Shown here in pieces: positions 52,815-56,299 of a stretch of DNA of 64,000 nt. The stretch comes from Tricharina praecox (Eukaryota). The stretch spans positions 496,001 through 560,000 of the forward strand of contig NW_026250426.1 of the NCBI RefSeq assembly GCF_024521635.1. The letters are read 5' to 3'. The notes under the pieces are model-generated. The model saw nothing but the letters and a program-made list of their open reading frames with translations, did not search any database and was not told the DNA's origin. The translations under genes were made by a program, and so were the position numbers. Within the stretch, counting starts at the first letter, position 1. Every line of letters starts with the position of its first letter.

Positions 52815-54483
52815 ACTGGCCATCAAAGCGAGCGCTGGCCGCACCTATCCAATGCAAAGGCCACAAAGTCGCAACGGCATACAAACCTTTGAGCCTCCTC
52901 GACTGCTACAGATTTACATAGGAGACCGACCGTGAACTGGACTGGGACAGATAATACTTCCTTACAGAGTTATCTCCTTGAAATCCGGGCTGGTATGATA
53001 TGATACTCTCGGCACTACTATTAGGGCCTCTCCCATGCCAATCGAGAAATGGCGGCTTGACCAGGCCATTTCCGCCGCAGCACTGCTATGCACGATCAAT
53101 TCGACAACGACCTGTCCTCTGATTTTTTGTGTCCCTCTGTGCATGCACTTGGGTTATCCCCTCGCCTCGTCGTCGCCGCTCTAGGGTTAACTGCTGGACC
53201 TCCCGCTAGCGAAAAGCCTGGAGTCTCTGAGGATTGCAAGGGTGGTCGAGACGACATTGGTACCTGTAGGTACCAGATCCAGACAGATCCAAGTGTGTCT
53301 CAATATTATTTCTTTGCCTCCAGCCAGGTTCGACTATTCCGTTCCTATCGACACTGCCAAATTCGAAATCTGCCCTCCCCCCCCCCTACCCCCCTCCAGG
53401 TCTCCAAACTCCTCTACTGCTGGCGCGAATGGGTAGTCAGTTTAGTTCCCTGGAACCGTCCACCACCACCACCACCACCCGTACCCGTATGAAGCTACGC
53501 AGGTACATATAGATATCTTGATGAATCGTCCACCACCACCCGTCAGCCAATCCACCTCGATCCGAGGTGCTCACGTTTTTTTACTGATATAAACTGCCAC
53601 ATCTTCACCGACGCTCCGTTCGATCGCCCACTGTCCATCCGGTCTTGGTCCAACGAATTCATTCGGCTCTTCGCAATCTCTCGGCTAACAGTCATCTCCT
53701 CCCTCCTCACCACCATATAATAACCTTAGGGTCGATCCGCGCGGCACCGAAAACGTGGTGATCGTCGACTCCTTCCCAACTTCGGCACAGAAGCATCATC
53801 TAGCTATCATCCTTTCTGACCGACCAACTCCGTCAACAAGGAACACCACCACCACCACCACCCCCTCCAAAAAAAAAAAAAATTAATAAAAATAACAACA
53901 ACAACAGCACCTCCGGTACTAAAGGACTCTGCATATCCTTCCTCGCATGCTCCCGGAAACAAGCAAAAGCAGCACATCATAGCAATTTTACTTTGACGCC
54001 CTTGCCATTGCGGGGAGACATCGCCTCGAGCTGGTACCTGGTCCACATACTATATCTACCCTAGTCGCAAGTCGCTAGCAAAAAAAAGGTGCGCGCCCTC
54101 TGCTGGATTCTGGCTCGCATATATCCCCACCCTCCTCGAATGTCGCCCACTGTCGTCGTGATCGTCAACTCTTTCCCTGCTGTGCTGTAAATGCATCTGC
54201 TTGCTTTTCATGTTCATATACACTTCTCGAGCAACTTCCTTGCTCCCCTCCACTACCACCCTCCGCCCCAATTATATAATTAGCCTTCAACAAACACACC
54301 GACTTCAGCTCTGAACACCATCTGACTGTAACATCGATACATATAGACGGACCACAGAAACGCGGGCAAATCAGCTTCTCTTCCTCGAATTCAACCATCT
54401 CGAAAACCACGTATACTTTGAGTGCAGAGTCCTCAAAGTTTTCAGCTACGCTTTTCCCCCTAATCACCCCACAAGCCGCCAAA

Positions 54484-56299
54484 ACGGCCGCCATTAACTA
54501 TCCCCCGTTTCCTCGGGGCCCTGCCTCCCCACTCGACAACCTCTTCCTCCCACCAACACCGCAGTCGCCTTCCTCACCATCCTCCGTGAACGGGGCGGAT
54601 AAATACTTGCTGCCCTCCCTGGACCTTTTGGGCCAGCAAACCCAATACTGGGGTGGAAGCAGCAGCAGTGGTCCTGCCTCCGATCTTTCTCGCCCGGCAA
54701 CTGCATCCCCGCCGCATTCGACATCTTGCTTCTCTCCCGTTTCCTACGTGTCCACGAGACCCCTCCCAACGCCCCCCGGCTCGAGTGATTTTGACGGGCG
54801 ACCATACCACCCGGTCTCTCGGGAGGAGTTTGCAGCTGCCACTCTATGCCAACAGCCTCTGCTTTCCAACATCAATAATATTGCTGCTAGGAGACACCGC
54901 GACAATCTCCCGCAGTTTAACCTGACAGCTACCCGTTCGTCGTACGCCACTTTTGGAAGCTTTCCTACCCCGCCACCTTCCGAGATGACAACTTCGTTGG
55001 CCTCGGCCTCAAACAACGGCGTGTCTTCGTCTAGCACCGGCCCGTATTCGGGCTTCCAGCACAGCAACAATAACAACAACAACAGCTCTCCGTATGGTTA
55101 CATTTCGACCACGCAAAGTTATTCGTCTCCGGGTATGCAGGCATTAAGAAGTTTCACTTCGCCGTCGGGCTACGGATCGGCCCGAAGCAGTAGACCGGAC
55201 AGCCCTGCCACCGGTGAAATGCTGCCGTCTTCACCGTACGATGCGAATGGAGCTTCATATCCCACCGTCAACAGCATGGGGTTGACCAGCAGCAGTACTC
55301 ACACCAGCCTTCCTGCTGCAGCAGCACCCTTAAGCAGCCTGCCATCGATTGGGCAGGGGAGCAATAGTTCTTACGCTTCTTCACCCTACAACATTGGTGG
55401 AGGGCATGGCGGAGGGCATGGTGGTACTGCAACCACGCAGCAGCAGCAGCAGCAACAGCACCACCACCACAATGCCATAAATAGTCAGCCGCTGCAGCCC
55501 ACCCACGACACTTATTCTCCACATAACGCTGGCCTCCCCCCACCACCCGCACCTTCTTATTACACCACCGCCTCGACCTCATCATCTTCTCCATCACTCT
55601 CATATCATCATTCATCGGCGCCACTACGACAGATGTCGCCCACCACCCCCACCACGTCTTCAACGATGACTCGACCCCCGTCGGCAGCCAACAACAACAA
55701 TTACCCCCCACCTCTGTTGCCACTTCAGCCGCAACCGCAGTACAGGTTGCCTTACCAGCTTCCGGGCATGGCTTTGGGGATGGGACAGATGACCCACCAC
55801 CACCACCCTGGTTCGCTTCACCATCCTCAACCGGATAGACCTTTCAAGTGCGACCAATGCCCGCAGAGCTTCAGCCGTAACCATGATCTGAAACGCCACA
55901 AACGCATACATCTGGCGGTGAAGCCTTTCCCCTGCGACAACTGTGAGAAGAGCTTTAGTCGTAAAGACGCTCTCAAGGTTAGTTTTTATTTTTTACCCTA
56001 CAGCACATGGTCCAATGAGGTCGTTGAAGACTAATACATATCCACAGCGACATCGTCTTGTCAAAGGTTGCGGCAAGGCCTCTGATGCGAAACAAGCCGC
56101 TGCTCAGCAGCAGCAGAAGCAGGAACAACGATCGCCGCCCTACGATCAGCGGTCGCAGCATCAGCAGCAGCAACAACAGCACCAGCCGCAGCTTCAACGT
56201 CATCACCAGCTTCCACTACGACAGAGCGGCCTCCATTCCTCCTCCCCTGTCCCCCACCACCTCGGGAATTCGGTGATCGTCAAGTCTGAGCGATTATAA
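54484..56299 (+). CDS. nsdC: C2H2 zinc-finger transcription factor, NsdC-like. Start uncertain: first in-frame ATG is 54985, but the frame is open from 54280; the start shown is a candidate ACG. Intron 55978-56047.
   Basis: DRPFKCDQCPQSFSRNHDLKRHKRIHLAVKPFPCDNCEKSFSRKDALK|RHRLVKGCG; intron GTTAGT..CTAAT..CAG. NsdC assignment is from recalled finger sequence, not from a search. Confidence 0.75.

Follow-up and report, generated by a model that had tools for sequence, protein, structure and literature searches.

Conserved non-AUG starts have been documented for a small number of fungal transcription factors, namely, cpc-1 and, as cited alongside it, IDI-4. According to the accessible text of Ivanov et al. 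2017 (PMC5487733), cpc-1 of Neurospora crassa carries a near-cognate-initiated N-terminal extension, and two context positions of its ACG, A at -3 and G at +4, are perfectly conserved. The same text cites Podospora anserina IDI-4, a bZIP protein for which a CUG start conserved to Neurospora only has been proposed, and near-cognate starts in Cryptococcus are reported in the available part of PMC7049704.

The stretch analyzed here (the window) comprises 64,000 nucleotides of Tricharina praecox DNA (contig NW_026250426.1 of assembly GCF_024521635.1, positions 496,001 to 560,000, forward strand) and contains a zinc-finger gene whose first in-frame AUG is preceded by a long AUG-less open stretch (Table 1). 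A preliminary description had compared this arrangement to cpc-1, and the comparison was the right one: the proposed mechanism is already known from cpc-1, and the gene family represents a new cpc-1-like case of predicted non-AUG initiation.

Table 1. Features of the zinc-finger locus, in window coordinates
Feature	Position	Strand	Basis
Conserved DNA element GGTGATCG (AAAACGT-GGTGATC in Pezizomycete-like loci)	53757-53764	+	Same strand upstream of the gene in other loci
11-codon uORF, poor context (C at -3)	53947-53982	+	Absent in L010
In-frame TAG that closes the spliced leader's frame before the leader intron	54076-54078	+	Spliced-leader translation
Predicted 5'-leader intron (AAG/GTGCGC ... 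CTGAC at 54322-54326 ... TAG/)	54089-54346	+	Aligned donors, branch point, YAG
Non-coding leader part of exon 2, open by chance	54347-54483	+	Frameshifting indels versus L010; in-frame stops in 11 comparison loci
Putative near-cognate start codon ACG, context AAA-ACG-GCC	54484-54486	+	Codon and context conservation; control Thr varies
167-codon N-terminal extension	54484-54984	+	Protein conservation; dN/dS 0.19 versus L010
10-codon out-of-frame uORF, poor context, species-specific	54846-54878	+	Stop at 54876-54878
First AUG in frame (GAG-ATG-A), where a 414-aa isoform may start	54985-54987	+	Met kept in Pezizales-like orthologues
Zinc-finger domain, one C2H2 and one C2HC, split by an intron	55837-56071	+	Pfam zf-C2H2; spliced translation
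Intron inside the second finger (GT..CTAAT..CAG)	55978-56047	+	X4 contig match ends at 55977; spliced form matches P0001/P0005
Last coding exon, stop TAA at 56297-56299	56048-56299	+	Spliced translation

Gene structure and family

Removal of the intron at 55978-56047 gives proteins of 581 aa from ACG 54484 and 414 aa from ATG 54985, in agreement with the lengths of about 580 and 414 aa first estimated, and the two fingers lie at about residues 456 to 506 of 581, near the C terminus. The gene is single-copy in this genome, and its nearest named relatives are proteins of Sphaerosporella brunnea and Ascodesmis nigricans. In a FastTree phylogeny of 52 sequences (292 columns, midpoint root, several weak internal nodes), the window sequence groups with S. 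brunnea and A. nigricans, and lichen-fungus, Dothideomycete, Leotiomycete, and Sordariomycete sequences form separate clades. The Fusarium graminearum member of the family is FGSG_13314; the finger sequence is common to the family, and the gene tree follows the fungal classes. By these comparisons, the gene is a Pyronemataceae-type orthologue of FGSG_13314 (GzC2H103), predicted to encode a C2H2/C2HC transcription factor.

For two names used below, we take FGSG_07052 to be Fusarium FlbC and YDR253C to be yeast Met32; Met31 and Met32 bind the sulfur regulon with Met4. FlbC/FLE1, considered as a first label, was dropped since the family maps to FGSG_13314 and not to FGSG_07052, which has a separate row in the accessible table of PMC7041293. 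The label NsdC-like, under which the gene had initially been described, did not hold either: in the available text of PMC3749384, Aspergillus nidulans NsdC has three fingers (C2H2-C2H2-C2HC) that span 80 aa halfway along the protein, and no such domain of about 80 aa is present mid-protein in the 581-aa product, which has one C2H2 and one C2HC finger near its C terminus and groups with FGSG_13314. In the accessible parts of PMC7041293, FGSG_13314 is listed as GzC2H103, with YDR253C as its best yeast transcription-factor match (E 2e-15), and growth of the Fusarium mutant on minimal medium is normal, with no sign of a sulfur role; Table S2 scores the deletion as 1,1,0,0 for sexual development and as 4, wild type, for virulence, with all else wild type. 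The text of that paper calls FGSG_13314 essential for pathogenicity; its Table S2 gives virulence as wild type.

A search of the PDB returned only generic C2H2 proteins, and the ESM Atlas returned unnamed C2H2 clusters; P0007 was dropped as a chance repeat match. P0008 and P0017 to P0019 represent a diverged paralogue that is nearest the window's lineage and has degenerate fingers and a repeated, Met-rich N terminus, and a paralogue of this type was not found in this genome. Identical C2H2 ORFs lie on two contigs of this genome (L004 on G000:C43 and L005 on G000:C31), one of them near a contig end, and constitute either a duplicate or an assembly overlap.

A conserved ACG at the head of an AUG-less extension

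Between 54280 and 54984 on the plus strand, the zinc-finger frame is free of stops, and each of the other two forward frames contains eight; 54985 is the earliest in-frame ATG, and 54846 is the sole ATG within 54213 to 54984. These counts bear out the open, AUG-free frame reported in the preliminary description, and the near-cognate codons listed there, ACG 54484 (GCCGCCAAA-ACG-G), ACG 54409, and ATC 54397, all lie in this frame, as stated. A sequencing error hiding an ATG, which had been allowed for, is spoken against by an independent contig from run X1 (its RNA status is a guess) and by the orthologues: the contig matches 54408 to 54689 with 0 differences and 0 gaps, which argues against an error around the ACG, and the part from 54690 to 54984, which lacks independent contig cover, also lacks Met in the orthologues.

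Although the frame is open for the 235 codons originally claimed, the coding extension is shorter. Compared with its nearest relative, L010, the window shows indels of 1, 1, 17, 4, 2, and 1 nt upstream of ACG 54484 and none in the 137 nt after it, and in-frame stops occur 8 to 69 codons before the ACG, the distance being 8 to 56 codons in the 11 comparison loci. From the indels and stops upstream of the ACG and the lack of indels just after it, we place the start of conservation at the ACG and the length of the extension at 167 codons. The first 68 codons (54280 to 54483) are open by chance and non-coding, given the six indels and the position of 54280-54346 inside the predicted leader intron.

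From the ACG on, the extension is common to six Pezizales-like proteins, in which similarity begins abruptly at K/T/I-T-A-x-I/L-x-Y/F-P-P and includes the motifs TAAI.YPP, LPSLD, YW, LPTPP, RR..LPxF, and FPTPP. Among lichen-type proteins reaching these positions, an LPTPP-type motif is present in 68/68 and an LPxLD-type motif in 58/59. The dN/dS of the extension between the window and L010 is 0.19 (bootstrap 0.11 to 0.29, 162 codons), versus 0.27 for the part from the AUG to the fingers; it is 0.10 to 0.16 among L012, L015, and L016 and 0.35 for L064/L079, so that the informative pairs range from 0.10 to 0.35 and indicate purifying selection in the main frame. Four pairs were set aside, L081/L084 as uninformative (three changes) and window/L017, L010/L017, and L079/L081 as near saturation. 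Orthologues thus do conserve the region as coding sequence. An untranslated relic, or an RNA or DNA element, with only the 414-aa AUG-started protein being made, might be argued from the sequence-based nature of the evidence for translation and from partial AUG-less remnants in Dothideomycete-like loci that change little at synonymous sites too. However, the low dN/dS observed here is accompanied by ample synonymous change, the stretch just past the ACG is free of indels, and the motifs persist among the lichen-type proteins, which makes this explanation highly improbable.

Among 79 metagenome loci available as DNA, 20 carry the N-terminal motif upstream of the first Met. In all 21 loci with the motif (the window plus these 20), the Thr codon of the start column is ACG; the loci represent about seven lineages (window/L010, L017, L012/15/16, L021, L073, L064/79, and L081/84) and group with Pezizomycetes and lichen fungi. 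ACG accounts for only 7 to 29% of the Thr codons in these genes, and the equally invariant Thr of LPTPP, serving as a control, is ACG in 4, ACA in 5, and ACT in 3 of 12 representatives; in the Ala codon directly after the ACG, all four third bases occur. Bases -3 to -1 are AAA or ACC, with A at -3 throughout, and +4 is G in 12/12 representatives. The comparison of orthologues upstream of the first Met, as proposed in the preliminary description, thus reveals codon-level conservation and singles out its first candidate, ACG 54484, as the conserved near-cognate codon, while its other two, ACG 54409 and ATC 54397, are not conserved and lie inside the indel-ridden leader.

The start column was also inspected in a set of 120 lichen-type proteins. 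After 15 of 66 rows anchored on a downstream motif had been dropped, 51 proteins reaching the region were counted by eye, of which 17 read x-T-A and 13 read K/T-L-A, the rest being diverged. A swap of Thr and Leu between a fixed codon starting with A and a fixed Ala is expected from an exchange of ACG and CUG, and the Leu in these 13 proteins is probably encoded by a CUG at the start position. We infer that the gene very probably starts at ACG 54484, 167 codons before the first AUG. A hairpin downstream of the ACG that might assist initiation was considered and rejected: a CCCCG/CGGGG stem at about +19 is matched in strength by synonymous-codon controls, both in the window (p 0.375) and in 9 of 11 other loci, and only L081 and L084 stand out.

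Another near-cognate start (ATT 54493 in GCCGCC-ATT, ACG 54409, or ATC 54397), used by itself or alongside ACG 54484, would have a precedent in cpc-1, which employs several near-cognate codons in the accessible text of PMC5487733, and ATT 54493 follows a purine at -3 and corresponds to ATC in L010 and L017. Its position is, however, occupied by CTT, CTC, CTA, or TTA, none of them near-cognate, in 9 of 12 representatives, which rules out AUU 54493 as a conserved start, and the other two codons lie where the leader is ridden with indels; we consider such a start very unlikely. Editing of the ACG to AUG in the mRNA would take a single C-to-U step, but we know of no nuclear C-to-U mRNA editing in these fungi, and the Leu occupying this column in 13 proteins could not be turned into AUG in this way. 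Entry into the frame by frameshifting from a uORF, which the available text of Ivanov et al. (PMC5487733) leaves open for cpc-1, would find no conserved uORF overlapping the start, and we give editing and frameshifting together almost no chance of being correct.

Predicted leader intron, upstream exons, and the first AUG

In the mechanism that we regard, as a whole, as very likely, the leader intron of a capped mRNA would be spliced out to leave an almost AUG-free leader, a fraction of the scanning ribosomes would initiate at ACG 54484 in its optimal context to give the 581-aa protein, and those scanning past it would reach AUG 54985 and give a 414-aa form with the fingers and without the conserved N-terminal motifs. 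Donors of this intron align among the window, L010, and L017, lying -395, -391, and -333 from the ACG, and each is accompanied by a CTGAC branch point and YAG at -137, -149, and -145, respectively. The S. brunnea protein call P0009, which comes from a contig without the finger intron, joins both flanking blocks about 14 residues apart, and the window has about 320 nt between them. The intron at 54089-54346 is predicted and conserved, and it is likely spliced in this species; its removal would take out three uAUGs (54140, 54191, and 54210), and the ATG of the uORF at 53947 is the only one remaining in the spliced leader from 53600 on. In the loci examined, most of the ATGs in the 350 nt preceding the ACG lie in the leader intron. 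RNA evidence was sought in five runs (word shares up to 0.19), represented by low-depth assembled contigs only; neither a junction across the leader intron nor a start site was found in these five contig sets, and four long skips in the contig matches were joins of simple repeats and were ignored.

Given that a leader intron exists, an AUG-bearing upstream exon might be spliced onto the extension, and the long protein would then start at a normal AUG, as several public models assume. P0001, P0005, and several lichen models (551 to 831 aa) start upstream of the Thr; the NCBI Ascodesmis model P0005 does so at a Met 33 residues before it, with Ser and not Ala after the Thr, and P0009 has an open frame of 116 codons up to an upstream M whose codon is not visible. 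Callers of the P0009 type print GTG as M, as exemplified by P0020 versus L064. The modelled upstream sequences are, however, mutually unrelated, and two S. brunnea calls conflict, differing upstream of their shared block. Liberal enumeration yielded formal joins to an AUG exon in 8 of 12 loci, with 34 such joins in the window, none common to different lineages and none at all in L010, L064, L081, and L084; ATG 54140, joinable in the window via a weak GTAAAT donor, is CTG in L010. Splicing of the leader intron supplies no in-frame AUG, the spliced leader of the window being closed by the TAG at 54076. In L010 and L017, a stop separates the conserved acceptor from the ACG, and L064 has no AG between the upstream stop and the ACG, so that no exon can feed the frame there. 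An upstream AUG exon, a possibility raised when the locus was first described, was thus not found at the sequence level in the window, L010, L017, or L064, and the upstream starts of P0005 and P0009 remain. As it would leave unexplained both the invariant ACG with its A at -3 and G at +4 and the Thr/Leu swap, we judge this explanation quite unlikely and retain initiation at ACG 54484.

Farther upstream, a GGTGATC(G/A) element occurs on the plus strand across four fungal classes; it is also found in L015, L017, L064, L036, L046, L047, L049, L050, L055, L060, L063, L065, and L078, and its form in Leotio- and Sordariomycete-like loci is CCA-GGTGATCGACGCTCCAC. It is possibly a promoter, autoregulatory, or leader-RNA element.

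Control of long and short isoforms by the uORF at 54846, as suggested in the preliminary description, is not supported, since 10 of 11 comparison loci, including L010, lack a counterpart of this uORF, and L017 has different uORFs in another frame. Conserved uORFs of the cpc-1/GCN4 type that are bypassed by a near-cognate start were not found among the 11 comparison loci. The Met at 54985 is kept in Pezizales-like proteins, which makes leaky scanning past the ACG to a 414-aa form plausible, and we lean toward its occurrence. Such a form would keep the fingers and lack all conserved N-terminal motifs, among them the RR..LPxF motif that AUG-started orthologues elsewhere keep. The first Met follows RR..LPxF in the window, L010, and L017, so that only the ACG product is complete there, and precedes it in 30 of 33 distinct ORFs. 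It is tempting, if rather speculative, to suppose that in the Pyronemataceae-type gene the ACG is the only start giving a complete regulator, that the 414-aa form is a finger-bearing, stripped antagonist, and that the long/short ratio, set by start stringency, is an ancient translational switch for fruiting bodies, with LPTPP as a possible phosphodegron limiting the long form. On motif likeness, we take LPTPP to resemble a proline-directed phosphodegron.

Range across fungi and comparison with known systems

Of the 59 entries extending at least 1300 nt upstream of the fingers, an extension HMM matched 22, and it matched 0 of the 37 Dothideo-, Leotio-, and Sordariomycete-like ones (best E 4.1); only the misses are informative, as the HMM was built from 12 of the loci scored. 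The absence of the extension from these 37 loci shows that it is dispensable in the three classes. L021 and L073 fall with the Pezizomycete clade in a tree without an Orbiliomycete and a sampling without a Eurotiomycete. The best explanation of this distribution is that a putative ACG start and an extension of 93 to 175 codons are ancestral to the Pezizomycete-like and lichen-fungus orthologues, with, probably, a switch from ACG to CUG in one lichen lineage. Sordariomycete-like loci have an AUG start just before the RR motif and no extension.

Seven Dothideomycete-like loci (L027, L032, L043, L048, L053, L057, and L076) carry a 60- to 80-codon in-frame AUG-less remnant (PLPTPP..NVAAA) upstream of the first Met, with little change at synonymous and non-synonymous sites alike, and L053 and L057 also have a long overlapping open frame. 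In four Leotiomycete-like loci (L025, L037, L065, and L035), the usual Met is preceded by another kind of N-terminal stretch, which is AUG-started and about 55 aa long (MSQT.LLS).

No earlier report of a non-AUG start in this gene family was found in the literature searched, which included few subscription papers. The gene would extend the few known cases to the zinc-finger factors; its orthologue in Fusarium is required specifically for perithecia and ascospores, and one and the same start codon would be maintained throughout the Pezizomycete-like and lichen-fungus lineages. An ACG start would explain why, in the public models examined, the protein is truncated or preceded by unrelated upstream exons, and such a start offers a one-codon experimental handle on whether initiation stringency tunes fungal sexual development.

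FGSG_13314 and the gene described here have the finger family and the RR..LPxF motif in common, and the extension is found only in the latter. NsdC resembles the family in having a C2HC finger and in acting in sexual development but has three mid-protein fingers versus two near the C terminus. IDI-4 is likewise a fungal transcription factor with a proposed conserved near-cognate start, in its case a bZIP protein and a CUG. The closest likeness is to cpc-1. Both genes encode Pezizomycotina transcription factors with an AUG-free in-frame extension under purifying selection and an ACG that, together with its A at -3 and G at +4, is deeply conserved, and in both, automated models include the extension without resolving its start; as for cpc-1, the region is free of stops and AUGs, the near-cognate codon stands in a conserved optimal context, and no upstream AUG exon was found. 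The gene differs from cpc-1 in being a C2H2/C2HC and not a bZIP factor, in having one conserved start and not three, in lacking a conserved uORF1/uORF2 architecture, and in being known from its sequence alone. Its extension has been lost in the sampled Sordario-, Leotio-, and Dothideomycete-like loci, whereas cpc-1 keeps its extension there.
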